A DNA stretch of 64,000 bases from an uncultured beta proteobacterium (GTDB lineage: Bacteria; Pseudomonadota; Gammaproteobacteria; Burkholderiales; Burkholderiaceae_C), in NCBI GenBank assembly GCA_903905735.1, contig CAIVHU010000057.1:14002-78001 (forward strand), read 5' to 3'. Of this stretch, positions 18,423 to 61,784 are shown piece by piece. A program made the position numbers and the translations under genes. The number at the start of each line of letters is the position of its first letter. Position 1 is the first letter of the stretch. The notes beneath the pieces were generated by a model. That model made no database searches. It worked only from the letters and a program-made list of their open reading frames with translations, and had not been told where the DNA came from.

Positions 18423-21400
18423 ATGAACCCGTCACGTCTTTTCATTGAGCGTCCGGTGGCGACCTCGCTGCTGATGCTGGCCATCTTTCTGGCTGGTTTG
18501 CTGGCCTATCGCCTGCTGCCCATTGCCGCATTGCCGGAGGTGGACTACCCGACGATTCAGGTCACCACCCTGTACCCCGGAGCCAGTCCTGATGTCATGA
18601 CCTCGTCGGTGACCGCACCGCTGGAGCGCCAGTTTGGCCAGATGCCGGGCTTGGCGCAGATGTCGTCCAGCAGTTCGGGTGGTGCGTCGGTGATCACTTT
18701 GCGTTTTGAGTTGAGCCTGTCGCTGGATGTGGCTGAACAGGAGGTGCAGGCCGCCATCAACGCTGGCAGCAACCTGTTACCCAGTGACTTGCCCATGCCA
18801 CCGGTGTACAGCAAGGTCAACCCGGCCGATGCGCCGATCATGACCATTGCCGTGACCTCGCCGACGCTGCCGGTGATCCGCGTGCATGACCTGGTGGAAA
18901 GCCGCCTGGCGCAGAAGATTTCACAAGTGCCTGGTGTCGGGCTGGTCAGCATCGCCGGTGGGCGCCGACCTGCGGTGCGCATCCAGGCCAACCCCACAGC
19001 GCTGGCGGCACTGGGCATGTCGCTCGATGATGTGCGCAGTGCCATCGGTGCGGCCAATGTGAACCAGGCCAAGGGCAGTTTTGACGGGCCGCAACGGGCC
19101 TCCACCATCGACGCCAACGACCAACTCAAGAGTGCCAGCGAATACGCCGGCCTGGTGATTGCCTACAAGAATGGCAACCCGGTGCGCCTGCAGGACGTGG
19201 CGCAGTTGGTGGATGACGCCGAAAACCTTCGGCTGGCAGCCTGGGCCGACACCACGCCGGCTGTGATCCTGAATGTCCAGCGCCAGCCCGGTGCCAACGT
19301 GATTGACACCGTGGACAAGGTCAAGGCGGTGTTGCCAGCGCTGCAGGCGTCGCTGCCTTCATCCATCGACGTGCGGGTCCTCAATGACCGCACCACCACC
19401 ATCCGCGCGTCGGTGGATGACGTCGAGGTTGAGCTATTGCTGGCCATCGCCCTGGTGGTGGCGGTGATCTTTGTTTTCCTGCGCAGCGTACCCGCCACGG
19501 TGATTCCGGCTGTGGCGGTACCGTTGTCGCTGGTGGGCACGTTCGGTGTCATGTACCTAGCCGGCTTCTCCATCAACAACCTGACCCTGATGGCGCTGGT
19601 GATCTCCACCGGTTTTGTGGTGGACGATGCTATCGTCATGATCGAAAACATCTCGCGTTTTGTGGAGCAGGGCGACACCCCCATGGAGGCTGCGCTCAAA
19701 GGCTCCAAGCAGATTGGTTTCACCATCATTTCGCTCACCGTCTCGCTGATCGCGGTGCTGATACCGCTGCTCTTCATGGGTGACGTGGTGGGCAGGTTGT
19801 TTCACGAATTCGCCATCACGCTGGCGGTGTCGATCCTGATCTCGGCGCTGGTTTCGCTCACGCTCACGCCGATGATGTGCGCGCGCGTGCTGCGCCATGA
19901 AACCGAGGACAGCCATGGCCGCCTGTGGCGCGCCGTGGGCCACGCGTTCGAGCGCACCATTGCCGCCTATGGCCGCGCGCTGGACTGGGTGCTCGACCGC
20001 AAAACCGCCACCTTGATGGTCTTCGTCTTGACGCTGGCGCTGACTGCCGGGTTGTACACGATCGTGCCCAAAGGCTTCTTCCCGGTGCAGGACACCGGAG
20101 CGATCCAGGCCATCACAGAGGCTTCTCAGTCCACCTCGTTTGCCGCCATGGCGCAGCATCAGCAGGAGATGGCAGCGTTGATTCTGAAAGACCCGGCGGT
20201 GGACAGTGTGTCGTCCTTCATCGGTGTCGATGGTGCCAACGCCACCCTGAACGCCGGGCGTATGCTGATCTCGCTCAAGCCTTTGCGTGAACGTGGCCTG
20301 TCTGCCACCGAAGTGGCGCGCCGCATCGACCCGAGCACCCGCAACGTGCCCGGCATGGCGCTTTACATGCAGCCCGTGCAGGACCTGAGCATCGAAGACC
20401 GCATTTCCAAAACGCAGTACCAGTTCACGCTGAGCTCACCCGATATCGCCGAACTGTCACGCTCGACCACCGCGCTGCTGGACAAGTTGCGTCAACTGCC
20501 ACAACTCAGTGATGTGACGAGCGACCAGCAGGAGCAGGGCCTGCAGGCCTACATCAATATTGATCGGAATGAAACTGGACGCCTGGGCGTTTCGGTGGCG
20601 GCCATTGACAGCGCCTTGTACGACGCATTTGGTCAGCGTCTGATTTCCACCATCTTTACCCAGAGCAACCAGTACCGGGTGGTGCTGGAAGTGACGCCGT
20701 CGCTGAAGATCGGACCGGCTGCGCTGGCCAGCATCTATGTGCCAGGCACCAACAATGTGCAGGTGCCTCTGACATCTGTGGCGCATGTACAGGTACGTAC
20801 CGCACCTTTGGCCGTGAACCATGTGGCGCAGTTCCCTGCGGCCACCATCTCCTTCAATCTGGCACCCGCTGCCTCCTTGGGCGCAGCGGTGGATGCCATC
20901 AAGGCGGAAGAAGCGGCCCTGAAGCTGCCGCTGAGCGTGGAGACAAGCTTCCAGGGCGCGGCGCTGGCGTTCCAGGCCTCTTTGAGCAGTACGCTGCTGC
21001 TCATCGTGGCGGCCATCATCACCATGTACATCGTGCTGGGCGTGCTGTATGAAAGCTATATCCATCCGCTGACGATCCTGTCCACCTTGCCATCGGCGGG
21101 TGTCGGTGCGTTGCTGGCGCTGCTGGCGTTCCGGCTGGATCTGGGCATCATTGCCATCATCGGCATCGTGCTGCTGATCGGCATCGTTAAGAAAAACGCC
21201 ATCATGATGATCGACTTTGCGCTGGATGCCCAGCGCGACGAAGGCTTGTCTCCCCGCGCAGCTATCCACCAGGCGTGTCTGTTGCGTTTCCGGCCCATCC
21301 TGATGACCACCATGGCGGCCTTGCTGGGTGCGCTGCCGCTGATGCTGGGCACGGGCGTGGGCAGTGAACTGCGCCACCCGCTGGGTGTGGTGATGGTCGG

Positions 21401-21518
21401 CGGTCTGATCGTCAGCCAGTTGCTCACGCTGTTCACCACGCCGGTGATCTATCTGGGCTTTGCATCGCTGGCAGAACGGCTGCGCGGCAAGCCATTGGCA
21501 CAAGCCGGGGCGGTATGA
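18423..21518 (+). CDS. mdtB: RND multidrug efflux permease (MdtB-like)
   Basis: 1031 aa. [16 protein letters not shown]-terminus, 12-TM AcrB architecture, [14 protein letters not shown] motif. Confidence 0.9.
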
Positions 21519-24500
21519 ATATCTCGCGGCCTTTCATTGCGCGCCCGGTGGGCACCGCACTGATCACGCTGGGCGTGGCGCTGGCGGGGGTCATCGCCTA
21601 TTTTCTGTTGCCAATTGCCTCGCTGCCGCAGGTCGAGTTTCCGACCATCTCGGTCTCGGCCTCGTTGCCCGGTGCCAGCCCGGAAACCATGGCTGCGACC
21701 GTGGCGACACCGCTGGAGCGGGCGCTGGGCAGCATTGCCGGAGTCAGTGAAATCACCTCGTCCTCGTCGCTGGGCAACACCCGGGTGACCTTGCAGTTTG
21801 ACCTCCATCGCGACATTGACGGTGCCGCGCGGGACGTACAGGCGGCCATCAACGCCGCGCGTGCCCTGCTGCCCACCGGCATGCCGAGTAACCCGACCTA
21901 CCGCAAGGTCAACCCGGCCGACGCGCCGATCATGATCATCGCGTTGACCTCGGACACTATGACACGCGGGCAGATGTATGACGCGGCCTCCACGGTGCTG
22001 GCCCAGCGCCTGTCGCAGGTGGACGGTATTGGCCAGGTGACGGTGGGTGGTAGCGCCTTGCCGGCGGTGCGCATCGAGTTGGACCCGAATCGCCTCGCCG
22101 CCAATGGCATCGCGCTGGAAAGCGTGCGCATGGCGGTGGTGGCCAGCAATGCCAACCGCCCCAAGGGCGCGGTGGAGGATGCGCAGAATTATTGGCAGTT
22201 GGGCACCAACGATCAGGCCGTGACAGCCGCAGACTACGCGCCGCTGATTTTGAGCTACCACAATGGCGCTGCGGTGCATCTGCGCGACGTGGCTGACGTG
22301 GCCGACTCGGTGCAAGACGTGCGCAATGCGGGCCTGTCCAACGGTGCCCCAGCGGTTTTGCTGATTCTCAACAAGGCCCCGGGTGCCAATGTCATCAAGG
22401 CGGTGGACGATGTGCGGGCGCTGTTGCCGCGGTTGCAGGCCTCGATTTCTCCGGCCATCAATGTCAGGGTGGTGATGGACCGCACGCCCACCATCCGCGC
22501 CTCGATCCGCGAGGTGGAGCGCACGCTGGCGATCGCCTTCGGCCTGGTGATCGTGGTGGTGTTTGCGTTTTTGCGCAATTTCCGCGCGGCGCTGTTGCCG
22601 GCGGTGGCGGTGCCCGTGTCGCTGGCGGGCACGTTTGGCGTGATGTATCTGCTGGGCTACAGCATTGACAACCTGTCGCTGATGGCCATGACCGTGGCCA
22701 CCGGGTTTGTGGTGGACGATGCGATTGTGGTGCTGGAGAACATTTCGCGGCACATCGAGCGCGGCATGGCACCCAAGGCCGCGGCGCTGCAGGGGGCGAA
22801 GGAAATTGGCTTCACGGTGGTGTCGATCAGCCTCTCGTTGATTGCGGCGTTCATCCCGATTCTTGCCATGGGCGGCATCATCGGGCGGCTGTTCCGGGAA
22901 TTTGCGGTGGTGCTGTCGGTGTCGATCATGGTGTCGATGCTGGTGTCGCTGACCACCACGCCGATGATGGCCGCCACACTGCTGCGCCCCATCGGCCGGG
23001 ACAAAAGACCGGGTCGGCTGGCCAGGCTGATGACCTCGGCCGAGCGTTTTCTGGTGGGCGGCTATCGGCGCAGCCTGCGCTGGGTCTTGCGGCACCAGGC
23101 GCTGACCTTGCTGGTACTGGGCGGGGTGATTGCGCTCAATGTCACGCTGTATGTCACCATCGCCAAAGGGTTTTTTCCGCAGCAGGACACGGGTCTGCTG
23201 ATTGGCAGCGTGCGGGCGGATCAAAGCAGCTCTTTTCAGGCGATGCAGGAGAAGCTGGTGGCGTTCAATGACATTGTGCGCAGCGACCCGGCGGTGGCCA
23301 GCGCCACCGGTTTCACGGGTGGCGGGCAGCGTAACACGGCGTTCATGTTCATTGCGCTCAAACCACTCGCCGAGCGCAAGATGGACATCAACAAGGTGAT
23401 GAACCGCCTGCGTGGTCGCCTGTCGCACCTGCCGGGTGCCAGCCTTTTTCTGGTGCCGGCGCAGGACATTCGGGTGGGTGGTCGGCAGTCCAACGCGACG
23501 TGGCAATACACCCTCAAAGCCGATGATCTGGAAACCTTACGTGCCTGGGAGCCGCGCATTCGTCAGGCCCTGTCCCAGTTGCCCGAGCTGGTCGATGTCA
23601 ACAGCGACCAGCAGGACAAAGGGCTGCAAACCTCGCTGGTGATTGACCGTGATGCCGTGGCGCGCCTGGGTTTGAGTGTGAATGCGCTCGACAGCACCCT
23701 CAACGATGCCTTTGGCCAGCGCCAGGTCGGTGTGATCTATAACCCGCTCAATCAGTATCGGGTGGTGATGGAAGTTGCACCCAAGTACCTGCAGAGCCCC
23801 GAGTCCCTGAAGAGCATGAACTTCACCGCACCTGGCGGTGCGCAGGTGCCGCTGTCTGCCGTGGCCAAAGTGACCACCACCAACACACCGCTGGCGGTTA
23901 ACCACCAAAGTGGCTCGCCAGCGACCACCGTCAGTTTCAACCTGGCACCGGGCGTGTCGCTGTCACAGGCGGTGGACGCCGTTGACAAGGCCATGGCCGG
24001 GCTGGGTGTGCCGGTCGCCGTGCACGGCAGCTTTCAGGGCACGGCGCAGGCGTTTCAATCCTCGCTGTCCACGCAGCCGCTGTTGATTCTGGCGGCCATC
24101 GTGACCATTTACATCGTGCTCGGCATGCTGTACGAGAGCCTGATCCACCCGGTGACGATCCTGTCGACACTACCGTCTGCCGGGGTTGGGGCACTGCTGG
24201 CGCTGATGTTGTTCAAGACCGAGTTCACCATCATTGCGTTGATCGGTGTGGTGTTGCTCATCGGCATCGTGAAGAAGAACGCCATCATGATGATCGACTT
24301 TGCGATCTCGGCACAACACGCCAGTGAACACAGGGGTGGCCGTCTGGGGGCAGGCGCGGCCATCTACCGGGCGGCGTCTTTGCGTCTGCGCCCGATCCTG
24401 ATGACCACCCTGGCAGCCATCTTTGGCGCGGTGCCATTGGCGCTGGGCAGTGGCGATGGTGCCGAGCTGCGCCAACCCCTGGGGATAGCGATTGTGGGCG

Positions 24501-24631
24501 GGCTGCTGCTGAGCCAGTTGCTGACGCTCTACACCACGCCGGTGGTCTTTGTCTGTATGGACCGGCTGCGCCGCAAACCCAAGCCAGTTTTTCCTGTGCG
24601 CCCTGTGTCCCTTGCCGGAGCCTTGACATGA
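21515..24631 (+). CDS. mdtC: RND multidrug efflux permease (MdtC-like)
   Basis: 1038 aa paralog of the preceding gene ([29 protein letters not shown]). There is a 4-nt start/stop overlap with mdtB. Confidence 0.9.
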
Positions 24632-32443: not shown

Positions 32444-32650
32444 TTATTCGCCAGCGCTCTGATAGACGTAAGGCTGCTGTGCTACCTCGGCGGCGCGGAA
32501 CTCGCTCCAGGCGGCGCGGTCCACCGTTTTGTCCCACAACAGGCTGCGGCCCTGGCGCTGGCGCTCCTCCATGCCCGGGTTCTTGGCCTTGAGTTCCTTG
32601 ATGAACTGGGTGATCTCGGATTCGTATTTGGGACGGTAAAAAATATTCAT
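32444..32650 (-). CDS. DUF3460-like small protein
   Basis: 68 aa with YESEITQFIKELKAKNPGMEERQRQGRSLLWDK, recognised as the DUF3460 pattern. Confidence 0.6.
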   Translation of the reverse strand: MNIFYRPKYESEITQFIKELKAKNPGMEERQRQGRSLLWDKTVDRAAWSEFRAAEVAQQPYVYQSAGE

Positions 32651-32778
32651 GGTGTGGGGCCTTGTTGGCGCATTTTAGCCGTGCTGTGGCGTCGTGCCGC
32701 GCTGGTCTGTCATCGCGCCTTTGCTACAGAGGCCGGGTGTAATATTCGTTCCTTCCAGTCCGACTTTGACACCCATCC

Positions 32779-34803
32779 ATGAATTTTTTTGACCCTGCAT
32801 CCACATGGATCCATATGGATTGGGTGCTGGCGGTTGTGGTGGCGTGGCTACTGATTGGTCTGGCGGGCATTGTGGCGCTGCGCCGCTTCCGCTTCGTGGC
32901 CACGATTCTGTTTCCGCTGGGTGCGGTGTTTTCGATCCTGCTGATGGCGGTGGCCTTGAGTGCCGCATTTTCCAGCTCGGAGGTCGTGGTGCTGCCATTG
33001 GGCCTGCCGCAACTGCCTTTCCATCTGCGGCTTGACAGTCTATCGGCCTTTTTCCTTTTGCTGATTGGTGGCGCGTCTGCCGGGGTATCGACCTTTGCCG
33101 CAGGCTACTTCCGTCAGGGCGAGGGCACTCCACCTGGTTTGTTATGCCTCGAATACCACGTGTTTCTGGCCAGCATGGCGATGGTGGTGCTGGCCGACGA
33201 TGCCTATGTGTTCATGGTGATGTGGGAGACCATGGCGTTTTCGTCGTTCTTTCTGGTCTTGTCGAACCACCGCATCCCGGAGATTCGCAACGCCGGTTAC
33301 CTGTACATGCTGGTCGCGCACGTGGGGGCCTTGGGCATCCTGCTGAGTTTTGGCGTGCTGCAGGCTAATACCGGTGACTACACCTTTGCCAACATGCGCG
33401 CGCAACATCTGGATCCGTTCTGGGCCTCGGTGGCCTTTGTGCTGGCGGTGTTCGGGTTTGGGGCCAAGGCGGGCCTGTTGCCGCTGCACGCCTGGCTGCC
33501 GGAGGCGCATCCGGCAGCGCCTTCACCGGTATCGGCGCTGATGAGCGGCGTCATGCTCAAGATTGCGCTGTACGGCATCTTGCGGGTGGGGTTCGATTTG
33601 CTGCAAACGCGCATCTGGTGGTGGGGTGTGCTGCTCTTGGGCCTGGGCTTGACCACCGCCTTGTTTGGTGTGGTTTTTTCCACGGTGCAGGTGGAGATGA
33701 AGCGCCTGTTGGCGTATTCCAGCATTGAAAACATAGGTCTGATGTGCGCCGGGGTGGGCTTGTCGCTGCTGTTTTCGAGCTATGGCATGCAGGCGCTGTC
33801 GGCCCTGGCGCTCACTGCGGCGCTGTACCACATGCTCAGCCACTCTTTTTTCAAGAGCCTGCTGTTTTGCAGCACCGGCGCGGTGTTGCACGCCACGGGT
33901 GAGCGCAGTCTGGGCAAGCTTGGCGGCTTAATCCGCTACATGCCCTGGGTCGCGTGGCCGACCTTGGTGGGCGTGCTGGCCTGCGCTGGCTTGCCGCCAT
34001 TTGGCGGCTTTGTGGCGGAATGGTTGCTGTTGCAAAGTTTTCTGTTCACCACCGGGCTGCCCAGCTCGTTTCTGGACATGCTGGTGCCGGTGATGGCGGC
34101 CCTGATTGCCCTGATCGCGGCGCTGTCAGGCTTCACCATGGTCAAGTACTTTGGCGTGGTGTTTTTGGGTCAGCCGCGTGAAGAAAAATTGGCCAAAGCC
34201 CATGATGCCGGACGTTGGGAGCGTCTGGGCATGCTGTGGCTGGTGGTGGGCTGCATCTTGCTGGGTCTGTTCCCCAACCAGGTGATTGCGCTGATGGACC
34301 CGGTGACACGGCGGCTGGTGGGTGCCGGTCTGGCGCAGATGGTAGCCAACAACAGCTGGCTGCTGGTGCCGGTGAACGTGGAGCGCGCCAGCTACGCGCC
34401 CACCATCTTCCTGCTGGGTGTGGTGCTGAGTTTTGGCCTGGCGTTTGTGCTGGTGCGCAGGCTCTACCACGGCCGCCTGCGCCGGGTGCCGCCCTGGGAC
34501 TGCGGCCATCCCTGGCAAACCGCGCGCATGCAGGACACGGCCGAGGGCTTTGGCCAGCCGATCCGGCAGATTTTTGACCCGTTTTTCCGGGTCAGCAGAC
34601 AGTTGCCGAGCGCGTTTGACGAGCATCCAACTTACAAGGTCAAGCTGGAAGACCCGCTGTGGCACTGGCTGTATTTGCCCGTGGCGCGGCTGGTGGAGCA
34701 AGTGTCCAGAATCGTCGGACTGTTGCAGCAGGGCCGCATTGCGGTGTACCTGATGTACAGTTTTGTCACCCTGATCGTGGTGTTGCTGGTGGTGAAGCGA
34801 TGA
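32779..34803 (+). CDS. Hydrogenase-4 subunit B-like / NuoL-type antiporter-like membrane subunit (Ehr-type complex)
   Basis: 674 aa polytopic protein with NuoL/HyfB signatures (WLPEAHPAAPSPVSALMSG, KRLLAYSSIENIG). First gene of a six-gene cluster. Alternative start at 32815. Confidence 0.85.
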   Translation: MNFFDPASTWIHMDWVLAVVVAWLLIGLAGIVALRRFRFVATILFPLGAVFSILLMAVALSAAFSSSEVVVLPLGLPQLPFHLRLDSLSAFFLLLIGGASAGVSTFAAGYFRQGEGTPPGLLCLEYHVFLASMAMVVLADDAYVFMVMWETMAFSSFFLVLSNHRIPEIRNAGYLYMLVAHVGALGILLSFGVLQANTGDYTFANMRAQHLDPFWASVAFVLAVFGFGAKAGLLPLHAWLPEAHPAAPSPVSALMSGVMLKIALYGILRVGFDLLQTRIWWWGVLLLGLGLTTALFGVVFSTVQVEMKRLLAYSSIENIGLMCAGVGLSLLFSSYGMQALSALALTAALYHMLSHSFFKSLLFCSTGAVLHATGERSLGKLGGLIRYMPWVAWPTLVGVLACAGLPPFGGFVAEWLLLQSFLFTTGLPSSFLDMLVPVMAALIALIAALSGFTMVKYFGVVFLGQPREEKLAKAHDAGRWERLGMLWLVVGCILLGLFPNQVIALMDPVTRRLVGAGLAQMVANNSWLLVPVNVERASYAPTIFLLGVVLSFGLAFVLVRRLYHGRLRRVPPWDCGHPWQTARMQDTAEGFGQPIRQIFDPFFRVSRQLPSAFDEHPTYKVKLEDPLWHWLYLPVARLVEQVSRIVGLLQQGRIAVYLMYSFVTLIVVLLVVKR

Positions 34804-35750
34804 GTGTGCTGGGTGCTTTCTCGCAACTGCTGGCTTTGCTGACAGCGCTGGTGCTGGCGCCGTTGCTGACCGGCTGGGTCAGCATGTGGCGGCACTGGCT
34901 GCAAAACAAGTCGGCACCAAGCCTGCTGCAGCCCTACATGACGCTGCACAAGCTGTTCAACAAAGAGTTGCTGATGGCCGAGCATGCCTCGTCGCTGTAC
35001 CGCTTTTCGCCGTATGTGGTGTTTGGCTGCATGCTGCTGGCCAGCGCCATCATCCCGACGCTGTCCACCGATTTGCCATTGTCACCGGCGGCCGACGCGA
35101 TTGCGCTGGTGGGGCTGTTTGCGCTGGCGCGGGTTTTCCTATCGCTGGCCGCCATGGATGTGGGCACCGCTTTTGGTTCCATGGGCGCGCGGCGCGAAAT
35201 GCTGGTGGGCTTTCTGGCCGAGCCGGCCTTGCTGATGGTGCTGTTTTGCGCCTCGATGATCACCGGCTCCACGTCGCTCACCACCATTGTGGAAACCCTC
35301 GCGCACCGCGACCTGGCCATTTACCCGAGCATGCTGCTGGCTGGTGTGGCCTTCACCATGGTGTCTCTGGCGGAAAACGCCCGCGTGCCGGTCGATAACC
35401 CCGATACGCACCTGGAACTCACCATGATTCACGAGGCGATGATCCTGGAATACTCAGCGCGCCACCTGGCCCTGATGGAGTGGGCGGCCAGCCTGAAACT
35501 CTTTGCCTATTCGTGCGTCGGGCTGGCACTGTTTTTCCCCTGGGGTGTGGCTGAGGCCGATGCGCCGCTGGCCTTGCTGTTCGCGCTGCCAGTGCTGGTG
35601 TTCAAGCTGGCGGTGGGGGGCATCATGCTGGCCATGATCGAAACCGTCAGCGCCAAGATGCGGATTTTCCGAGTGCCAGAATTCTTGGGAACGGCTTTCC
35701 TGCTGGGGGTGATCGGCTTGCTGGTCAATGTGTTGCTGGGAGGCAAATGA
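34800..35750 (+). CDS. HyfC/HycD-like (NuoH-type) membrane subunit
   Basis: ATG at 34800 overlaps the upstream TGA (ATGA). Polytopic, with FDIAEAE-type region PVDNPDTHLELTMIHEAMILEYS. Confidence 0.85.
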   Translation: MSVLGAFSQLLALLTALVLAPLLTGWVSMWRHWLQNKSAPSLLQPYMTLHKLFNKELLMAEHASSLYRFSPYVVFGCMLLASAIIPTLSTDLPLSPAADAIALVGLFALARVFLSLAAMDVGTAFGSMGARREMLVGFLAEPALLMVLFCASMITGSTSLTTIVETLAHRDLAIYPSMLLAGVAFTMVSLAENARVPVDNPDTHLELTMIHEAMILEYSARHLALMEWAASLKLFAYSCVGLALFFPWGVAEADAPLALLFALPVLVFKLAVGGIMLAMIETVSAKMRIFRVPEFLGTAFLLGVIGLLVNVLLGGK

Positions 35751-36406
35751 TCAAGTTTGTGCCCCAGTTGATCAACCTGTTTGCCACGCTGATTCTGCTG
35801 CTGTCGTTTGCCATGATTTCGCAGCGGCGCATTGTGTCGCTGATCAACCTGTTCATGATCCAGGGCGCGGCGCTGGTGGCGGCTTCGTTTTTGCTGGCTT
35901 ACGTGACGAATCAGCCTGATTTGTACATCTCGGGCGTTTTGACCCTGGTGCTCAAGGTCATCTTCATCCCCTGGATGTTGCACCGTGTCATCCGCAAGCT
36001 CAACGTGCGCTGGGACGTGGAGACGCTCATCAACATCCCCACCACCATGCTGGTGGGCATTGGGCTGGTGATTTTTGCCTTCAGCCTGGCGCTGCCGATC
36101 TCTCGACTGTCGGACTCGATCGCCGGTGGCGCGCTGGGCATTGCGCTGGCCTGCGTGATGCTGTCGTTCATGATGATGATCACCCGCTCCAAGGCCATCC
36201 CCCAGGTGATTGGCTTTTTGTCGATGGAAAACGGCCTGCTGTTTGCTGCCACCACCGTGACCAGTGGCATGCCAATGATTGTGGAGTTTGGCATTGCGCT
36301 GGACGTGCTGGTGGGCGTGCTGATTCTGGGTGTGTTCATGTTCCAGATTCGCGAGAAGTTTGACAGCCTGGACATTCGACACCTTGAATCGCTCAAGGAA
36401 GAATGA
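35747..36406 (+). CDS. HyfE-like small membrane subunit
   Basis: 219 aa, about 7 TM helices, same size and position as E. coli HyfE. 4-nt overlaps on both sides. Confidence 0.75.
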   Translation: MIKFVPQLINLFATLILLLSFAMISQRRIVSLINLFMIQGAALVAASFLLAYVTNQPDLYISGVLTLVLKVIFIPWMLHRVIRKLNVRWDVETLINIPTTMLVGIGLVIFAFSLALPISRLSDSIAGGALGIALACVMLSFMMMITRSKAIPQVIGFLSMENGLLFAATTVTSGMPMIVEFGIALDVLVGVLILGVFMFQIREKFDSLDIRHLESLKEE

Positions 36407-37863
36407 GCATGAGCGCGCTGTATTTTGTTCTCGGTATTCCGCTTCTGGGTGGGCTGACGCTGGCAGCGGTGGGGCACCGGGCCTATGCGCGCAATGTCAA
36501 CGTGGTGTTCAGCCTGATGACTTTTCTGGCTGCTTGTGTCATGACCATTCGGGTCATTCAGGACGGGCCGCAGTTTGTCTGGGACAAGCAGTTTTTCATT
36601 GACCCGCTCAACGTGTTTCTGGTCACGCTCACCGCCTTTGTCAGCCTGACCACCGCCATTTTTTCGCGCCCCTACATGCGCGTGGAGCAGGACCACGGGA
36701 AGATGACGCCGCCGCGCATGCGCCTGTACCACAGCATGTACCAGTTGTTCAGCTTCACCATGCTGCTGGGTTTCACCACCAACAACTTAGGCATCATCTG
36801 GGTGGCGATGGAAGCGGCCACGCTGACCACCGTGCTGCTGGTCAGCGTCTATCGCACCCCGGCCAGCCTGGAGGCGGCGTGGAAGTACTTCATCCTGTGC
36901 GGCGTGGGCATTGCGCAGGCGCTGTTTGGCACGATTCTGGTCTATATGGCGGCCGACAAGGTGCTGGGTTCTGAACACGCTACGCTGCTGTGGAGCAGCC
37001 TCTCAGACATCAAGGGCCAGCTGGACCCGACCATCATGTCGTTGGCGTTTGTGTTCCTGCTGATTGGCTACGGCACCAAGATTGGCCTGGTGCCGCTGCA
37101 CAGCTGGTTGCCTGATGCGCACGCCGAAGGCCCGACACCGGTGTCTGCCGTGCTCTCGGGGCTGCTTTTGAATGTGGCGATGTACGCGGTGCTGCGCTGC
37201 AAGGTGCTTACCGATGGCGCGCTGGGCACGCAGATGGCCGGGCAACTGATGATGGGGTTTGGCTTGCTGTCGGTGACCGTGGCGGCGTTTTTCATCTCGC
37301 GGCAAAAAGATGTCAAACGCATGTTTTCGTACTCCAGTATCGAGCACATGGGGCTGATCACTTTTGCCTTTGGCATGGGCGGGCCGATTGCCAACTTTGC
37401 CGCGCTGCTGCACATGACGGTGCATTCGTTGGTGAAATCCGCCATCTTCTTCACCGTGGGCCACGCCACGCAAAAGGCTGGCACGCAGGTCATGAGCGAG
37501 ATTCGCGGCCTGATCAAAGTCAACCCCACCGTCGGTTGGGGTCTGATGCTGGGCACCATGGCGATTCTGGGCATGCCGCCGTTTGGTGTGTTTGCCAGCG
37601 AGTTTCTGATTCTGACCACCGCCATGCGCGATCAGGCCTGGGCCACGCCGTTCCTGTTTCTGGCGCTGGGCGTGGCCTTTGCCTCGATGCTGGTGCGCGT
37701 GTTGCCGATGGTGTTTGGTGACTCCACGCTCAAACCCCTGGCGCACCCGCCCGCTTTGGTGCCGGTGTTTGTGCACCTGTCGCTCGGTCTGGTGCTGGGC
37801 CTGTACATCCCGCCGTATCTGAACGGCTGGTACGTGGCGGCGGCCCGCATGTTGGGAGGCTGA
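36403..37863 (+). CDS. HyfF-like (NuoN/NuoM-type) antiporter-like subunit
   Basis: 486 aa with WLPDAHAEGPTPVSAVLSG and KRMFSYSSIEHMG motifs. Confidence 0.85.
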   Translation: MSMSALYFVLGIPLLGGLTLAAVGHRAYARNVNVVFSLMTFLAACVMTIRVIQDGPQFVWDKQFFIDPLNVFLVTLTAFVSLTTAIFSRPYMRVEQDHGKMTPPRMRLYHSMYQLFSFTMLLGFTTNNLGIIWVAMEAATLTTVLLVSVYRTPASLEAAWKYFILCGVGIAQALFGTILVYMAADKVLGSEHATLLWSSLSDIKGQLDPTIMSLAFVFLLIGYGTKIGLVPLHSWLPDAHAEGPTPVSAVLSGLLLNVAMYAVLRCKVLTDGALGTQMAGQLMMGFGLLSVTVAAFFISRQKDVKRMFSYSSIEHMGLITFAFGMGGPIANFAALLHMTVHSLVKSAIFFTVGHATQKAGTQVMSEIRGLIKVNPTVGWGLMLGTMAILGMPPFGVFASEFLILTTAMRDQAWATPFLFLALGVAFASMLVRVLPMVFGDSTLKPLAHPPALVPVFVHLSLGLVLGLYIPPYLNGWYVAAARMLGG

Positions 37864-37868
37864 CGCTG

Positions 37869-39455
37869 ATGAAGATTCCCGGTCTGGACATTGAATTCAC
37901 CACCTTGCCCGCACCCGTGCCGGTGGGGTACGGGCAGGTGAACGCCGAACAGTGGCAAACCGCTGCCACCGCCGTGCGTGATGCCGGTGGGCGGCTGGTG
38001 GCGCTGTGGGCCGGAAAAGCTATTGAAGATGTAGCTGTCAGCGCAGGTGGCATAAGGGCTGAGGCCATATTTGTTGCTTATGTCACCTTGGAAGGTCTGT
38101 TCTGGCTGGCGTTGCCACTGGGCAGCGGCCATGGGCGTGCGGGCTATCCCGATGTGTCTGTCGTATTTCCCTGCGCCAACCGCATGCAGCGCGCTGCCGC
38201 CGATCTGTCTGGCGTGCACGCCGAGGGTGCACACGACACCCGTCCCTGGTACAACCACGGTGCCTGGGCGGCGAATCATCACCCGCTGCTGCAAGACCCG
38301 CAAGCCCTACCCAAGCCGGAGCCCGGCGCGCTGCAAGACTACCCGTTTGTGCGGGTGGAAGGTGACGGCGTGCATGAGATTGCTGTCGGCCCGGTGCATG
38401 CCGGCATCATCGAACCAGGGCACTTCCGCTTCTCCATCGTGGGCGAAAAAATCCTGCGGCTGGAACAGCGCCTGGGCTACACCCACAAAGGCGTCGAGCA
38501 ACGCATGACGCAGATGCCGGCGCTGGAAGCGCATTGTCTGGCCGGGCGCGTGTCGGGTGACTCCACTGTGGCCTACACCTGGGCTTACTGCATGGCGCTG
38601 GAGTCGGCTTGCACCACCCGCATTCCGTCGCGTGCGGCGTGGCTGCGCGCGCTGATGCTCGAATGCGAGCGGGTTGCCAACCATTTGAACGATCTGGGTG
38701 CGCTGGGCAATGACGTGGCGTTTGCCTTTGCGCTGGCGCAGTTTTCACGCCTGCGCGAAGACTGGTTGCGCGCCTGCAAAGCGGCGTTTGGTCACCGGCT
38801 GATGATGGACGGTATCGTGCCTGGCGGTGTCAATGCCGACATTCCTGCGGCCGGGCGAGACCAACTTCAGGCACTTTGCCATGAGTTGGTGCCCACTGTG
38901 CACAAGCTGTTTGACGTGTTTGAGTCCCACGCTGGGTTGCAGGACCGCTTCATGGTCACCGGCCGGGTGCGGCCCGCACTGGCGGCGCAACTGGGCATGA
39001 CGGGCCTGGCCGGGCGCGCCAGTGCCCAGAGCTGGGACCTGCGCTGCGACCACCCGTTCGAGCCCTACGACAAATTGCGCGTGGTCATGGCCAGCCATGC
39101 GCGTGGCGATGTGGGCGCGCGAGCCTCGGTGCGTTTTCAGGAGGTGTTTGAGTCGATTCGCCTGATTGAGCGCCTGCTGCGCGAGATGCCGGAGGGCGAG
39201 ATTCGCACCGACGTGACTTTGCCAGCCCAGTCCAGCCGGGGTGCAGGCTGGGTGGAAGGCTGGCGTGGTGAGATTCTGGTGGCGCTGGAACTGGCCGGGC
39301 CGGATCAGGGCCACCGCATCGAGCGCTGCCACCTGCATGACCCGTCGTGGCAAAACTGGCCGGTGCTTGAGCATTCGGTCATGAAAGACATCGTGGCCGA
39401 TTTCCCGCTCATCAACAAGTCGTTCAACCTGAGTTATTCGGGGCAAGACCTATGA
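37869..39455 (+). CDS. Fused NuoC-NuoD / HyfG-HycE-like 'large subunit' lacking the Ni-Fe cysteine ligands
   Basis: GPVHAGIIEPGHFRFSIVGEKILRLEQRLGYTHKGVE is typical of group-4 large subunits. However, the N-terminal CxxC position reads RVSGDS (38541-38576) and the C-terminal DPCxxCxxR position reads FNLSYSGQDL (39411-39452). Confidence 0.85.
   Translation: MKIPGLDIEFTTLPAPVPVGYGQVNAEQWQTAATAVRDAGGRLVALWAGKAIEDVAVSAGGIRAEAIFVAYVTLEGLFWLALPLGSGHGRAGYPDVSVVFPCANRMQRAAADLSGVHAEGAHDTRPWYNHGAWAANHHPLLQDPQALPKPEPGALQDYPFVRVEGDGVHEIAVGPVHAGIIEPGHFRFSIVGEKILRLEQRLGYTHKGVEQRMTQMPALEAHCLAGRVSGDSTVAYTWAYCMALESACTTRIPSRAAWLRALMLECERVANHLNDLGALGNDVAFAFALAQFSRLREDWLRACKAAFGHRLMMDGIVPGGVNADIPAAGRDQLQALCHELVPTVHKLFDVFESHAGLQDRFMVTGRVRPALAAQLGMTGLAGRASAQSWDLRCDHPFEPYDKLRVVMASHARGDVGARASVRFQEVFESIRLIERLLREMPEGEIRTDVTLPAQSSRGAGWVEGWRGEILVALELAGPDQGHRIERCHLHDPSWQNWPVLEHSVMKDIVADFPLINKSFNLSYSGQDL
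38018..38066 (+). repeat. Intragenic in-frame copy of the short AT-rich dispersed repeat (inside the HyfG-like gene)
   Basis: agctattgaagatgtagctgtcagcgcaggtggcataagggctgaggcc. 13/13 (tagctgtcagcgc) and 9/9 (ataagggct) identities to the reference copy. Translated as AIEDVAVSAGGIRAEA. Confidence 0.75.
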
Positions 39456-39465
39456 GGACTGCGCC

Positions 39466-39993
39466 ATGATCTGGAAAGTGGTCCGACAAATCGCCAAGGT
39501 GGGCATCCCCACCGAACCTGCGCCAGATATTGGTGAAGAAAAGCAGGCTGAGGCCTCACACATTCAGGCTGAGCTGCTCTCTATTTTGGGGCAATCCCTG
39601 TGCATCCGCGAGGTGGATGCGGGCTCGTGCAACGGCTGCGAGATGGAGATCAACGCTCTGGGCAACCCCTACTACAACATCGAGGGTTTGGGCATCAAGT
39701 TTGTCGCCAGCCCGCGCCATGCAGACATGCTGCTGGTCACCGGCCCGGTCTCGCGCAACATGGAAATGGCCTTGAAGCGCACCTATGACGCCACGCCTGA
39801 ACCCAAACTGGTGGTGGCGGTGGGTGATTGCGCCTGTGACGGCGGCATCTTTGGCGAAAGCTACGCCACCTGTGGCCGGGTGGACAAAGTCATCCCGGTC
39901 GATGTGACGGTGCCAGGCTGCCCGCCCGAGCCGGTGGAGATATTGCGGGGGATTTTGCAGGCGGTGCGCAGGCGGGTTCAGGCGCGCGGTTGA
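39466..39993 (+). CDS. NuoB / HyfI-HycG-like small subunit retaining the [4Fe-4S] cysteines
   Basis: GSCNGCEMEI, ASPRHADMLLVTGP, GDCACDGGIF, and GCPPEP together supply the four canonical cluster cysteines. Confidence 0.85.
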   Translation: MIWKVVRQIAKVGIPTEPAPDIGEEKQAEASHIQAELLSILGQSLCIREVDAGSCNGCEMEINALGNPYYNIEGLGIKFVASPRHADMLLVTGPVSRNMEMALKRTYDATPEPKLVVAVGDCACDGGIFGESYATCGRVDKVIPVDVTVPGCPPEPVEILRGILQAVRRRVQARG

Positions 39994-40148: not shown

Positions 40149-40493
40149 GTGCTGAAAAACAGTTTGCGCGACGAGCTTCTTGAATTCCGCCGGGTGCGGG
40201 ACTGGGAGCAATTCCACAACCCGCGCAATCTGGCAACGGCGCTATCGGTGGAAGCGGCTGAATTGCTGGAGCCGTTTCGTTGGGCCTCGGAAGATCAGGC
40301 GCGTGACATCGTCCGGGAACGGCGCGCCGAGATCGCTGACGAGATGGCCGACATCGCCATCCTGCTGACCTATCTGGCCCATGATCTTGCTATAGATATG
40401 GATGCAGCCGTTGCTTTAAAAATAAGGGCCAACGCCGAAAAATACCCTGTTGACAAAGCGCGTGGATCGAACAAGAAGTATTCAGAGTTTTAG
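40149..40493 (+). CDS. MazG-like nucleotide pyrophosphohydrolase (small all-alpha NTP-PPase)
   Basis: FRRVRDWEQFHNPRNLA.ALSVEAAELLE.FRW and EMADIAILL motifs. GTG start preceded by gaggga. Confidence 0.75.
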   Translation: MLKNSLRDELLEFRRVRDWEQFHNPRNLATALSVEAAELLEPFRWASEDQARDIVRERRAEIADEMADIAILLTYLAHDLAIDMDAAVALKIRANAEKYPVDKARGSNKKYSEF

Positions 40494-44225: not shown

Positions 44226-45317
44226 ATGACCGTGTCAGAGCAAACCGTACTGGAAGCCCTCAGAAGAGTGATCGACCCCAACACCGGGCGCGATTTTGTA
44301 TCCACCAAAGCCATCAAAAACCTGAATGTGAGCGACGGCGACATCGCGTTCGACGTGGCGCTGGGCTACCCCGCCAAGAGCCAGATCGCCAGCTTTCGCA
44401 AGGAGCTGATCGCCGCCGTCAAAGCGGTGGCACCTGCCGCCAACGTGTCGGTCAACATCACCACGGTGATCACGGCGCACGCGGTGCAACGCGGTGTGCA
44501 ACTGCTTCCCGGCGTGAAAAACATTGTGGCGGTGGCTTCTGGCAAGGGTGGTGTGGGCAAGAGCACCACGGCGGTCAATCTGGCGCTGGCGCTGGCCGCC
44601 GAAGGTGCGCGCGTCGGCCTGCTGGACGCCGATATTTATGGCCCCAGCATCCCGATGATGATGGGCATCAACGGCAAGCCCGAGAGCACCGACGGCCAGA
44701 CCATGGACCCGCTGGAAAACTACGGTGTGCAGGTGATGTCGATCGGCCTCTTGGTGCCGCAGGACGAAGCCATGATCTGGCGCGGCCCGATGGCCACCCA
44801 GGCGCTGGAACAGTTGCTGCGCCAGACCAACTGGAAAGACCTGGACTACCTGATCGTCGATATGCCGCCCGGCACCGGTGACATCCAGCTCACGTTGTCG
44901 CAAAAAGTGCCGCTGACCGGCGCAGTGATCGTCACCACGCCGCAGGACATCGCGCTTCTGGATGCCCGCAAAGGCATCAAGATGTTTGAAAAAGTCGGCG
45001 TGCCGATTCTGGGCATCGTGGAGAACATGGCGGCGCACGTGTGCAGCAACTGCGGCCATGTCGAGCCGATTTTTGGTGCCGATGGCGGCAAGAAAATGGC
45101 GGCTGAATTCCAGATGGACTATCTGGGTGCCTTGCCGTTGTCGATGACTATCCGCCTTCAGTCCGACAGCGGCAAGCCGCCGGTGGTGTCCGACCCCGAC
45201 AGCGAGGTCTCCGGCCTGTACAAGGCCGTGGCGCGCAAGGTGGCGCTGGCCATTGCCGCCAAGAACAAGGACTTTTCCAGCAAGTTCCCGTCGATCAAGA
45301 TCTCCCAAGGCACCTGA
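44226..45317 (+). CDS. apbC: Fe-S cluster carrier ATPase (Mrp/ApbC)
   Basis: N-terminal DUF59-like region, [24 protein letters not shown], and the CSNCGH CxxC motif. Confidence 0.9.
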
Positions 45318-51145: not shown

Positions 51146-51336
51146 GGTTTCAGTCGGGCGGGCGTGGCGCGGGGCAGGGGGCTTTTACAATGCGGGCAGT
51201 TTATGCGCTCAGGTGGCTGGCGGATGATTCTGGGGATTTGCAGCCAGACCATGAGGGTCTGCCCGAGCATCTTCCCGCGTCTGGCGCACTGAAGTCGTTT
51301 TTCCCCCTTTTGGTTTTTTATCTGTACAGGATCAGC

Positions 51337-51801
51337 ATGACAAGCACCGTCGCCAGCGTTTTACCCGGCTCTTTTTTGACCCTGCATTACCGCTTGAGCG
51401 GCCCGGCCGGGGTGGTGGTCAACACCTTTGAAGGCTCGCCGGCCACCCTGACGCTGGGCACCGGTCAGCTCTCACCCGCGCTGGAAGCCACCCTGATCGG
51501 CCTGCCCGAGGGCACCCACACCACCCTTGAGCTGCCCGCCGGGGCCGCCTTTGGCGAGCGCAGCACCGATATGCAGCAGTGGCTGGCGCGCCAGGAGCTC
51601 ATCGACATGGGGGTGGAGGACGAGCAGTACGCGGTGGGCGATGTGCTGCACTTTCCCACGCCCGACGGCCAGGGACAGTTTGGTGGGGTGATTCTGGATT
51701 TTCGCACCGGGGCCAAAGGCGACGCCGTCAAGCTCGACTTCAACCACCCGCTGGCTGGCCAGCCGGTGAGTTTCGAAGTGCAAGTCATCGGGGTGCTGTA
51801 A
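51337..51801 (+). CDS. fkpB: FKBP-type peptidyl-prolyl cis-trans isomerase (FkpB/SlpA-like)
   Basis: LTLHYRLS...., the typical [19 protein letters not shown] ending, and position immediately upstream of ispH as in E. coli. Confidence 0.75.
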
Positions 51802-51803
51802 CC

Positions 51804-52785: not shown

Positions 52786-54223
<1,438 letters not shown>

Positions 54224-54356
54224 TTTTCTCTTGTCGGTATCGTGGTTTTGCTGCTGAGTAAGTTTCGCTGGATGCCGAAAAATGCTGTGTTGTCAAACCG
54301 TGAGTACTATGACCAAGTTCTGTCATTTGAACCAGGTTCTATCTTTCCGGAAATTT

Positions 54357-55556: not shown

Positions 55557-55617
55557 CGTTTCAGTAAATGTTGCCTCGGGATATCCATGCGTCGGATACC
55601 TGACCTTTGCGACCTTC

Positions 55618-58887: not shown

Positions 58888-58975
58888 CAACGCTTCACCG
58901 GGGGTGTCTGGCGCAAGCCGGGCTGAGAGAGTCCCCACACCTGATCTGGATCATGCCAGCGTAGGGAGCGTGATG
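58888..58975 (+). promoter_or_regulatory. TPP (THI-box) riboswitch in the thiB leader
   Basis: ccgggggtgtctggcgcaagccgggCTGAGAgagtccccacaCCTGATCTGGATcATGCCAGCGTAGGGAgcg contains the invariant CUGAGA and ACCUGAUCUGGAUAAUGCCAGCGUAGGGA-type core. It lies 77 nt upstream of the thiamine ABC operon. Confidence 0.9.
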
Positions 58976-61781: not shown

Positions 61782-61784
61782 ACC

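Follow-up and report, generated by a model that had tools for sequence, protein, structure and literature searches.

All four Ni-Fe cysteine positions are replaced in the large subunit of a six-gene membrane complex encoded in the window (the whole 64 kb stretch of DNA that was analysed). The locus is confirmed to be of the Ehr type (Ech/energy-converting hydrogenase-related; hyfBCEFGI), a kind already described and common. We give an even chance to the reading that this complex descends from group 4 membrane-bound hydrogenases, lost Ni-Fe cofactor binding and is a redox-coupled, one-cluster ion translocator, not a hydrogenase. An earlier note on this DNA had proposed a redox-driven or ion-translocating module; the evidence for such a module is now stronger but falls short of proof. 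To what was known of the family we add the signature that replaces the cysteines, the loss of the quinone ligands, the intact antiporter Glu/Lys residues, the contrast in the ferredoxin module and the lack of a conserved partner gene.

The hyfBCEFGI set was pointed out in 2010 in Cupriavidus metallidurans CH34 (Rmet_4666-4671) and C. necator H16 (H16_A2196-2201), where the operon was called incomplete and unlikely to support lithotrophic growth (PMC2864759). The likeness to the window lies in the gene set, with the same six genes in the same order and in the same bacterial order, but here in another host genus and with other chromosomal neighbours. The six-subunit makeup, which the earlier note had matched to Ehr complexes, agrees as well with the Geobacter sulfurreducens cluster GSU0739-45 (Coppi 2005), whose listed subunits include NuoL-like and HyfE-like proteins and a large and a small subunit (PMC7894505). 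Ehr complexes got their name from work on Geobacter and from comparative studies, among them the one that set up the Ehr class (Marreiros et al. 2013). The NuoB-like small subunit and the NuoL-, NuoH-, HyfE- and NuoN-like membrane subunits are shared, a likeness by description. No experimental work on, or demonstrated function for, any Ehr complex was found in the literature up to 2026, in agreement with the earlier statement that the physiological role is not established.

The six ORFs occupy positions 32779-39993 of the plus strand and are translationally coupled, as judged from gene calls and a check of the junctions (Table 1). The first three junctions are 4-nt ATGA overlaps, beginning with the ehrC start on the ehrB stop, and the other two are gaps of 5 and 10 nt, just as the earlier note had described (co-directional genes with 4-nt overlaps or gaps of at most 10 nt). 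Its predicted six-subunit composition was likewise upheld by NCBIfam, Pfam and PDB sequence matches. The operon is flanked by scpA/DUF3460 on one side and MazG-like/metG on the other. Pfam scans, covering the window gene calls apart from a few short ORFs and the two large ones at 18423-24631, found only housekeeping genes outside the operon; the neighbours include panC, panB, nadB, scpA, DUF3460, MazG-like, metG, patatin and apbC. As previously claimed, these scans of the 64 kb window revealed no HycF/NuoI, HycB or other Fer4 subunit and no formate dehydrogenase, hyp or HycI gene. Neither a match to the sigma-70 consensus nor an Rfam element lies in the region 5' of ehrB, which presumably regulates the operon.

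Table 1. Features of the Ehr-type locus (window coordinates).
Feature	Position	Strand	Description
DUF3460 gene	32444-32650	-	divergent from ehrB; Pfam E = 6e-28
Intergenic region, ehrB/divergent DUF3460 gene	32651-32778		128 bp; presumed operon promoter and 5' UTR
ehrB/hyfB-like gene	32779-34803	+	674 aa; NuoL-type antiporter-like membrane subunit with long C-terminal extension
ehrC/hyfC-like gene	34800-35750	+	316 aa from ATG at 34800; NuoH/HycD-type membrane subunit
hyfE-like gene	35747-36406	+	219 aa; small polytopic membrane subunit
ehrF/hyfF-like gene	36403-37863	+	486 aa; NuoN/M-type antiporter-like membrane subunit
Large subunit gene	37869-39455	+	528 aa; NuoC-NuoD fusion, HycE-like, without Ni-Fe ligands
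L1-equivalent motif, G226-Y236	38544-38576	+	GRVSGDSTVAY; stands where R-x-C-G-x-C-x-x-x-H would be
L2-equivalent motif, I515-L528	39411-39452	+	INKSFNLSYSGQDL; stands where D-P-C-x-x-C-x-x-R would be
Small subunit gene	39466-39993	+	175 aa; NuoB/HycG/MbhJ-like, one [4Fe-4S] site, hydrogenase CxxC type

The large subunit consists of Complex1_30kDa (PF00329) and Complex1_49kDa (PF00346) domains, and its score with NiFeSe_Hases (19.8) is below the gathering threshold of 25.8. A phmmer alignment with E. coli HycE (7z0s_E; E = 6e-52, residues 79-526) pairs RVCGICGFAH with RVSGDSTVAY and DPCYSCT with NLSYSGQ, so that the four cysteine positions read S229, S232, S522 and G525 in the numbering of the window protein. 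This alignment, which the earlier note had suggested as a check, thus bears out the replacement by Ser, Ser, Ser and Gly at both motifs, and there is no shifted CxxC motif. The earlier coordinates were exact for the C-terminal motif (39411-39452) but placed the start of GRVSGDSTVAY one codon early, at 38541. The L1-equivalent motif also aligns with MbhL RMCGICSFSH, and S229-G230-D231 are invariant in 47 family members across Bacteria and Archaea. The L2-equivalent motif aligns with HycE PLIIGSLDPCYSCT; alignment A2 shows no variation at its residues N516, K517, S518, L521, S522, Y523, G525 and D527. The protein stops three residues past this motif, with no C-terminal maturation extension. Both quinone ligands of complex I are missing as well, the equivalents of His38 and Tyr87 being I181 and G230. 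An AF2 monomer model (pTM 0.87) has HycE (7z0s_E) as its top Foldseek match (TM 0.86), with low confidence at the pocket region 158-194 and at the C-terminal motif, where the pocket geometry is not readable.

For the small subunit, which matches PF01058 (Oxidored_q6/NuoB) with E = 3e-34, the best PDB matches are MbhJ (6cfw_J, E = 3e-40) and HycG (7z0s_G, E = 9e-37). C55, C58, C122 and C152 fall on the cluster ligands of both proteins, confirming that the four [4Fe-4S] cysteines are kept, and 80-85 of the 85 small subunits found at 81 related loci share them. The motif is the hydrogenase-type CxxC and not the tandem-Cys of complex I. No Fe-S motif lies in the 55-aa N-terminus.

Among the membrane subunits, EhrB matches NF005086 (hydrogenase 4 subunit B; 916 bits, cut-off 667) and PF00361, and EhrF matches NF005045 (hydrogenase 4 subunit F; 886 bits, cut-off 543). 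The best PDB match of EhrB is HycC (7z0s_C, E = 1e-61); EhrF comes closest to the antiporter-like subunits in Mbs (6u8y_H) and in MBH (6cfw_H). In the alignments, the ion-channel Glu/Lys residues are intact in both EhrB and EhrF: EhrB keeps the TM5 Glu (E150), TM7 Lys (K230, where HycC has Leu), TM8 His and TM12 Lys, and EhrF keeps E137 in TM5, K226 in TM7 and the TM12 Lys (HSLVKSAIFF). EhrC (PF00146, NADHdh, E = 5e-32) is closest to HycD (7z0s_D, E = 3.6e-43) and has a conserved loop, PVDNPDTHLEL...EYSA, corresponding to HycD PFDLAEAEQEL...EYSG. The HyfE-like subunit has no Pfam match and reaches NF008556 (hydrogenase 4 membrane subunit) with E = 2e-26 and 93 bits, under the cut-off of 136; its orthologues at distant loci match PF00420 (NuoK) weakly.

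The family comprises thousands of homologues, with more than 600 matching stretches in GTDB genomes (one genome per species); since the operon is also intact and conserved, the locus is not a chance arrangement. The Ni-Fe cysteines are lost in all 89 large subunits found at the 85 related loci searched and in 119/119 top matches of the family profile. A signature, S-G-D-[S/N] plus N-L-S-Y-[S/A]-G, takes their place from Burkholderiales to Methanoperedens archaea. The replacement residues are invariant in Burkholderiales, Binatia, Verrucomicrobiota and Methanoperedens, so a new pocket is under purifying selection and is not decaying. The window complex falls in a Burkholderiales subfamily with Gly before the motif Arg (AGRVSGD); the archaeal, Binatia and Verrucomicrobia members share about 35% identity with this subfamily and have Glu there (AERISGD). 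A two-cluster ferredoxin module is missing from the Burkholderiales type and kept in distant members: in Methanoperedens as a separate 112-aa 2x[4Fe-4S] gene that lies between those for the large and small subunits, and at a Verrucomicrobia-type locus as a Fer4-like N-terminal fusion in a 280-aa small subunit. Across 80 genome loci around homologues, the flanks vary by genus and the operon has no constant neighbour that could be an electron donor, acceptor or partner.

Among known systems, E. coli FHL-1 (HycBCDEFG-FdhF, 7z0s) is the closest solved structure by sequence for three subunits and the second closest for the HycG-like one, and it shares the NuoC-NuoD fusion and the small-subunit motif. 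Unlike FHL-1, the window complex lacks Ni-Fe ligands, HycF/HycB ferredoxin subunits, FdhF, nearby HycI/hyp and a C-terminal processing extension, and it adds a second antiporter-like and a HyfE-like subunit, as in Hyf/FHL-2. With Pyrococcus furiosus MBH (6cfw) and Mbs/Mbx (6u8y) it has in common a cytoplasmic NuoB/D module atop an Mrp-like ion module. However, MBH is a 14-subunit enzyme that contains a NuoI-like protein, MbhN, and has its Ni-Fe site complete, while Mbs reduces polysulfide with a different subunit set; to our knowledge, neither lacks the four cysteines together with the ferredoxin subunit. Complex I/NDH-1 (NuoA-N) has NuoB, C, D, H, L and N homologues here, with the antiporter Glu/Lys chain conserved, but NuoE/F/G/I, NuoA and NuoJ genes are missing from the locus.

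By homology to FHL and MBH, EhrB, EhrC, the HyfE-like subunit and EhrF would form the membrane arm, and the large and small subunits, with one [4Fe-4S] cluster, the cytoplasmic cap. As the Burkholderiales form has no HycF/NuoI-type two-cluster subunit, a soluble one-electron carrier would dock straight onto the small/large subunit surface. The single cluster would then pass electrons to or from a substrate that is not H2, since there are no Ni-Fe ligands, and not a quinone bound as in complex I, since there are no His/Tyr ligands. The remodelled pocket (S229-G230-D231-S232 and N520-L521-S522-Y523-S524-G525), which borders on the NuoH-like subunit, would hold this substrate. Passed on by the NuoH-like loop and along the Glu/Lys chain of both antiporter-like subunits, the ensuing change in charge and protonation would move H+ or Na+, probably reversibly. 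The electron-wire modules of distant Ehr operons support a redox role, as does the NuoH-like coupling subunit, a type not otherwise known outside redox-driven superfamily members (complex I, FHL and MBH structures). So does the production of the Geobacter Ehr proteins, higher with formate than in hydrogen-containing conditions (PMC7894505). Against it count the entry of electrons through one cluster without a HycF/NuoI-like subunit, which has no precedent among characterised relatives, the apparent lack of a conserved partner gene, and the Ser, Asp, Asn, Tyr and Gly of the predicted pocket, which point to no obvious redox cofactor. The cluster could also serve structure alone.

A rival reading is a redox-independent secondary transporter, an Mrp-like cation/proton antiporter arm whose cap is a leftover with a structural or regulatory part, such as sensing redox state or O2 to gate transport. 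The fully equipped antiporter-like subunits, the absence of an electron-input subunit in the window and of conserved partners at the 80 loci around homologues, the housekeeping context, and the SulP/STAS transporters and PTS-EIIA(Ntr)-like regulators adjoining several distant members all fit this unlikely explanation. However, the four cluster cysteines and about 85 large-subunit residues, remodelled pocket included, are strictly conserved across two domains of life, and the 2x[4Fe-4S] module of other lineages is hard to explain without electron transfer. We know of no characterised Mrp antiporter with NuoH/B/D-like subunits. Distinctly unlikely is a ferredoxin (or other donor):quinone oxidoreductase, a minimal complex I/NDH-1-like pump with quinone entering via the NuoH-like subunit and the N2-like cluster reducing it. 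The complex I quinone chamber is indeed formed by NuoH-, NuoB- and NuoD-like subunits together, the Burkholderiales hosts are quinone-respiring aerobes, and the family was proposed to link complex I with hydrogenases as an intermediate (Marreiros 2013, as cited in PMC6349859). Yet the head-group ligands are gone, the small-subunit motif is not that of complex I, and every subunit is nearer to FHL and MBH, both quinone-independent, than to Nuo; moreover, Riflemargulisbacteria carry Ehr complexes, and a full quinone biosynthesis pathway was not identified there (PMC6349859).

A non-functional relic, decaying after loss of the catalytic centre, is very improbable. Although the Geobacter Ehr has been assumed to be already non-functional and drifting (PMC13194489), the six ORFs are intact and coupled, the family is widespread with its invariant residues and cluster cysteines kept in Bacteria and Archaea, some genomes have two divergent paralogous sets, and the proteins are made in Geobacter. 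We give almost no credence to a genuine hydrogenase-4 or formate hydrogenlyase with alternative ligands or partners encoded elsewhere. Automatic annotation would suggest one, as the equivalog models for subunits B and F exceed their cut-offs and many database entries are named "Ni,Fe-hydrogenase III large subunit", but the missing cysteines and processing extension, the absence of HycF/HycB, FDH and hyp genes from the window scans and the sub-threshold NiFeSe_Hases score speak against it, and true four-Cys hydrogenases turn up only at <=37% identity. Finally, the best matches are from Rhodoferax and Hydrogenophaga, which fits the earlier guess of Comamonadaceae.

The six ORFs of the hyfBCEFGI-type locus run in one direction. 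Genes 1 to 4 overlap by ATGA at each junction, and genes 5 and 6 follow after gaps of 5 and 10 nt, respectively; with such overlapping or near-abutting junctions, the genes form a translationally coupled operon. Profile searches and structure matches agreed on the six-subunit makeup of an energy-converting hydrogenase-related (Ehr) complex, as had been read from the DNA in the earlier note. By sequence, the top solved-structure matches were HycC for gene 1 (E = 1e-61), HycD for gene 2 (4e-43) and HycE for gene 5 (7z0s_E, from the E. coli FHL-1 structure; 6e-52, aligned over residues 79-526). The antiporter-like subunits of Pyrococcus Mbs and MBH were the top matches of EhrF (gene 4), and the small subunit best matched Pyrococcus MbhJ (3e-40), with HycG second (9e-37). 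This NuoB-like small subunit is encoded together with NuoH-like and Mrp/Nuo antiporter-like membrane subunits. An AlphaFold2 monomer model of the large subunit confirmed the fold (pTM 0.87, mean pLDDT 81.6), with low confidence at the pocket-forming segment 158-194 and at the C-terminus. Foldseek placed HycE (7z0s_E) nearest to this model at a TM score of 0.86, followed by E. coli NuoCD. No solved structure closer than HycE was found in the structure library; it therefore appears that no Ehr structure had been deposited by April 2026.

Coordinates of features in the window and in related loci (L-numbers are labels of the loci compared)
Feature	Sequence	Position	Strand	Remarks
BLUF blue-light sensor protein	window	1916-2344	+	stand-alone
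Pair of ~1030-aa ORFs	window	18423-24631		
DUF3460 gene	window	32444-32650	-	68 aa; Pfam E = 6e-28; inside apparent 411-bp scpA-operon gap
Gene 1, EhrB, hydrogenase-4 subunit B	window	32779-34803	+	674 aa; NF005086, 916 bits, above cut-off
Gene 2, EhrC, NuoH/NADHdh family	window	34800-35750	+	316 aa from ATG overlapping preceding stop
Gene 3, HyfE-like membrane protein	window	35747-36406	+	219 aa; 93 bits, below cut-off
Gene 4, EhrF, hydrogenase-4 subunit F	window	36403-37863	+	486 aa; NF005045, 886 bits
Gene 5, large subunit, Complex1_30kDa + Complex1_49kDa fusion	window	37869-39455	+	528 aa; PF00329 + PF00346
Gene 6, small subunit, NuoB family	window	39466-39993	+	175 aa; profile search
MazG-like nucleotide pyrophosphohydrolase	window	40149-40493	+	114 aa; between small-subunit gene and metG
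apbC/mrp (NUBPL-family Fe-S carrier)	window	44226-45317	+	4 kb downstream of operon
FKBP-type isomerase	window	51190-51801	+	
Spurious ORF	window	51465-52685	-	406 aa; high GC3
IspH/LytB	window	51804-52772	+	E = 7.5e-101
Low-GC stretch	window	54001-56000		GC 0.536
TPP riboswitch RF00059	window	58890-58985	+	55.4 bits
Three-gene ABC transporter	window	59052-62429		solute-binding protein, permease, ATPase
Second Ehr set	L015	17425-18999		
Second Ehr set	L017	756-2183		
Second Ehr set	L037	1561-3012		
DabB-like + DabA genes	L012	13565-18286		Ca. Accumulibacter sp. ACC003; PF00361; PF10070, E = 7e-239
2x[4Fe-4S] gene	L082	11575-11913		Ca. Methanoperedens; 112 aa
Universal stress protein gene	L082	12395-12829		Ca. 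Methanoperedens
PTS-EIIA/SulP context	L084	2944-4782		Verrucomicrobia-type
PTS-EIIA/SulP context	L086	2846-3346		Verrucomicrobia-type
PTS-EIIA/SulP context	JGI 3300041966 contig			Verrucomicrobia-type
Large + small subunit genes, TPP-dependent enzyme gene	L085	8095-12447		Verrucomicrobiota MAG

All four Ni-Fe cysteines had been said to be replaced in the large subunit, and the alignment with HycE proposed for checking the motif positions bears this out. In the HMMER alignment, RVCGICGFAH of HycE lies opposite RVSGDSTVAY at the N-terminal motif (L1) and DPCYSCT opposite NLSYSGQ at the C-terminal one (L2), where DPCYSC has become NLSYSG; the alignment with MbhL gave the same register. The cysteine positions of R-x-C-G-x-C-x3-H and D-P-C-x2-C-x2-H/R are thus occupied by S229, S232, S522 and G525, and both CxxC pairs are absent. 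The Pfam model NiFeSe_Hases (PF00374) scored the protein at 19.8 bits, short of its gathering score of 25.8. Since the large subunit ends 3 residues past the second motif, the C-terminal extension that an endopeptidase would process, as in HycE, is missing. The small subunit does keep its [4Fe-4S] cysteines, again as noted before: C55, C58, C122 and C152 align with the cluster ligands of MbhJ and HycG, in the hydrogenase-type C55-x-x-C58 arrangement, and the N-terminus of 55 residues has no Fe-S motifs. The complex is almost certainly of the Ehr type and not a hydrogenase, and the earlier note was correct in both its observation and its interpretation.

The same replacement is found throughout the family. 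An exhaustive search of 50%-identity cluster representatives returned 6294 relatives. Most full-length representatives at 35-58% identity lack the cysteines and carry two common motifs, x-S-G-D-[S/T/N/E]-x-x-x-[H/Y] and N-K-S-F-N-L-S-Y-[S/A]-G-x-D-L, while true four-Cys hydrogenases (RICGVC..., ELCYSCTDR) are confined to identities of 37% and below. A profile built from 14 distant Cys-less members recovered 119 further proteins, all 119 of them Cys-less, including those of Ca. Methanoperedens and ANME-2 archaea, Binatia and Verrucomicrobiota. S229, G230, D231, N516, K517, S518, L521, S522, Y523, G525 and D527 are invariant in a 47-sequence alignment across these groups, together with about 75 framework residues; the true hydrogenases used for comparison conserve many of these framework residues too. 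At the level of loci (80 genome loci plus some of those of distant members, 85 in all), none of the 89 large-subunit matches has the four-Cys set. The four cluster cysteines are present in 80-85 of 85 small subunits, which tblastn located in 81 loci. Invariance of the replacement residues across groups means that the pocket was remodelled and then placed under strong purifying selection, as opposed to plain decay.

Homologues of the large subunit number in the thousands, the nearest (67-86% identity) belonging to Rhodoferax, Hydrogenophaga and other Comamonadaceae; their database names are "hydrogenase", "Ni,Fe-hydrogenase III large subunit" and "NADH-quinone oxidoreductase subunit C". A scan of bacteria and archaea with one genome per species gave more than 600 matching stretches, and metagenomes gave thousands. 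The best 80 of these >600 come from Rhodoferax, Accumulibacter, Ramlibacter, Ralstonia pickettii, Paraburkholderia, Caballeronia, Azoarcus, Thiobacillus, Gallionella, Steroidobacteraceae and others. They keep the B-C-E-F-G-I order with flanks that vary by genus; the placement of the operon between scpA and metG is shared by Rhodoferax and Ramlibacter.

Partner genes were surveyed in 80 genome loci around large-subunit homologues using our own ORF calls, BLAST clustering and Pfam. No universal partner was found, nor any formate dehydrogenase (FDH), NuoEF, hyp or ferredoxin gene, and no NuoI/HycF-type gene was seen in the gene orders, where flanking ORFs were compared with the window proteins only. 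The ORF caller was crude and often picked antisense ORFs in GC-rich genes; apparent absences of hyfC, hyfE and the small subunit are therefore artefacts. Non-universal neighbours include a DUF1275 gene (14 loci) and a spermidine-synthase-like gene (13 loci, sometimes directly upstream), neither of which occurs in the window. Some Burkholderiales have a second, divergent Ehr set near the first, with a Cys-less large subunit 31-44% identical; in two of the three loci tabulated (L017 and L037) it lies upstream, with the spermidine-synthase-like gene between the sets. In Ca. Accumulibacter sp. ACC003, DabB-like and DabA genes are found 2 kb downstream of Ehr. Seen in this one genome, the proximity of a DabAB inorganic-carbon pump may be a coincidence.

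Distant members differ in their Fe-S content. In Methanoperedens a separate 2x[4Fe-4S] gene lies between those of the large and the small subunit; a universal stress protein gene closes the operon. Verrucomicrobia-type operons encode small subunits of 278-286 aa, with a weak N-terminal Fer4-type match in one or two of them. With such modules in distant Ehr, the family overall keeps an electron wire to the N2-like cluster, a point in favour of electron transfer. The Burkholderiales branch, including the window, has lost this wire. Three Verrucomicrobia-type contexts open with a PTS-EIIA(Ntr)-like and/or SulP/STAS gene, directly upstream on the same strand; this association is confined to one lineage, and no partner gene is common to the distant-member contexts. 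One Verrucomicrobia-type operon has three antiporter-like genes. In a Verrucomicrobiota MAG, Cys-less large and small subunit genes are on their own beside a gene for a TPP-dependent enzyme; the 10 kb upstream of them contain no gene for a membrane subunit.

We consider that the complex would assemble like the FHL/MBH core and translocate H+ or Na+ reversibly, coupled to a redox reaction. Its single cluster would pass electrons directly to or from both a soluble carrier and a substrate in the remodelled pocket. This general mechanism has, in our judgement, about an even chance of being right. The ion-translocating residues are retained: TM5 Glu and TM7 Lys in EhrB (E150, K230) and EhrF (E137, K226), the LPLHxWLPxAH histidine region and TM12 Lys in both, and a recognisable acidic TM5-6 loop with its EYS motif in the NuoH-like EhrC. 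The same channels would serve a redox-independent antiporter in which the soluble subunits form a structural or sensory cap. We find this unlikely in view of the 2x[4Fe-4S] module of distant members. An Mrp antiporter, moreover, is a MrpA-G set without NuoB-, NuoD- or NuoH-like subunits, whereas the window has only MrpA/D-like (PF00361) and possibly MrpC/NuoK-like proteins, plus NuoH-, NuoB- and NuoCD-like ones. A quinone reductase of the complex I type is rather improbable, being down-weighted because both ligands are missing. In the NDUFS2 alignment the quinone-ligand His (GPAHPAAHG vs GPVHAGIIE) falls on I181 and the Tyr (RLDY vs RVSG) on G230, so that Ile and Gly stand in place of Nqo4 His38 and Tyr87 of T. 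thermophilus. Complex I NuoB also has a tandem-Cys (CC) N2 motif, in contrast to the CxxC here (complex I alignments start only at C58), and none of the complex I genes NuoA/J/K/I/E/F/G occurs in the operon or the window.

That the locus encodes a genuine hydrogenase after all, as automatic annotation implies, is very improbable. Group 4 [NiFe]-hydrogenases have a NuoI/HycF/EchF 2x[4Fe-4S] subunit and depend on Hyp maturation machinery, and those of the Hyc/Hyf type also have a C-terminal extension that an endopeptidase cleaves; here there is no hyp or hycI gene in 64 kb and no such extension. Just as improbable is a relic, although a 2026 paper regarded Ehr as non-functional (PMC13194489); the invariant replacement residues point to selection. 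A further reading is possible but doubtful: the replacement pocket (S-G-D-[S/N]...H; N-K-S-x-x-L-S-Y-[S/A]-G-x-D) would be a new substrate, hard-cation or proton-gating site, and Ehr a distinct energy-converting class that carries out chemistry other than H2 cycling or quinone reduction, the Burkholderiales form working on a single [4Fe-4S] cluster without a ferredoxin-like wire. If true, no other redox-driven member of the complex I superfamily would be as small, and this one is widespread in aerobic bacteria.

Ehr complexes have been described as group 4 hydrogenase relatives without Ni-Fe ligands, suspected of coupling cytoplasmic redox reactions to charge translocation; a pairing of FDH with Ehr has been put forward for Margulisbacteria, for which a complete pathway of quinone biosynthesis was not identified (PMC6349859). 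The function of Ehr in Nitrospira and ammonia-oxidising archaea is stated to be unknown (PMC10284858, PMC10432482). The founding Geobacter sulfurreducens EhrL/EhrS (GSU0739-45), which match only by published subunit descriptions, have a role that "has never been investigated"; their abundance was higher with formate than under hydrogen-containing conditions (PMC7894505). The hyfBCEFGI genes of Cupriavidus metallidurans CH34 and C. necator H16 were noted as an incomplete hyf operon (PMC2864759). Our literature searches found no fitness, biochemical, structural or other experimental characterisation of any Ehr, and the accessible part of the supplementary text of a C. necator transposon-fitness paper does not mention H16_A2196-2201. 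The window operon is of a common kind, already noticed in the same lineage and unsurprising to a specialist; it leaves the picture unchanged because an equivalent operon exists in the genetically tractable C. necator. Ehr function is nevertheless a question about complex I superfamily diversification that is about 20 years old. The hosts include wastewater Accumulibacter, Rhodoferax, Ralstonia, Paraburkholderia, nitrifiers and methane-oxidising archaea, and routine mis-annotation as hydrogenase-4 or "NADH-quinone oxidoreductase subunit C" causes H2 metabolism to be over-predicted from genomes. The residue-level map makes the problem more testable, with targets for mutagenesis and structure in the invariant replacement pocket, the absence of the quinone ligands, the preserved ion channels and the lineage-specific loss of the two-cluster module.

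Gene calls across the 64 kb were scanned against Pfam. In agreement with the earlier note, no HycF/NuoI, HycB/HyfA, formate dehydrogenase, Hyp, HycI or Fer4 protein was found among the scanned calls, which cover all but some short ORFs and two ORFs of ~1030 aa; that pair has an HlyD-type membrane-fusion gene on one side and an outer-membrane efflux gene on the other, an RND efflux layout. Upstream of the operon, on the minus strand, are panC, panB, nadB, scpA and the DUF3460 gene, leaving 128 bp in which no sigma-70 consensus was found. No Rfam element was found near the operon, and terminator-like matches there were at the level of shuffled sequence. Downstream come the MazG-like gene (replaced by a DUF1275 membrane-protein gene in Rhodoferax loci L005 and L007), metG, a patatin-like lipase, apbC/mrp, an FtsX-type permease, a hybrid histidine kinase, smr and radC. 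NUBPL, the eukaryotic homologue of ApbC, is a complex I assembly factor; a specific apbC-Ehr link was rejected, as the metG-apbC adjacency is ordinary synteny that recurs regardless of Ehr.

Further downstream are an FKBP gene, ispH, serS, pta and, behind a TPP riboswitch, an ABC transporter presumably for thiamine uptake. The minus-strand ORF called over the FKBP and ispH genes is spurious. No tRNA gene was found in the window. One 2-kb stretch stands out by its low GC (~0.62 elsewhere), with short ORF calls (95 aa; a 188-aa AAA_28 protein). Finally, the gene for the BLUF protein adjoins that for GTP cyclohydrolase I.
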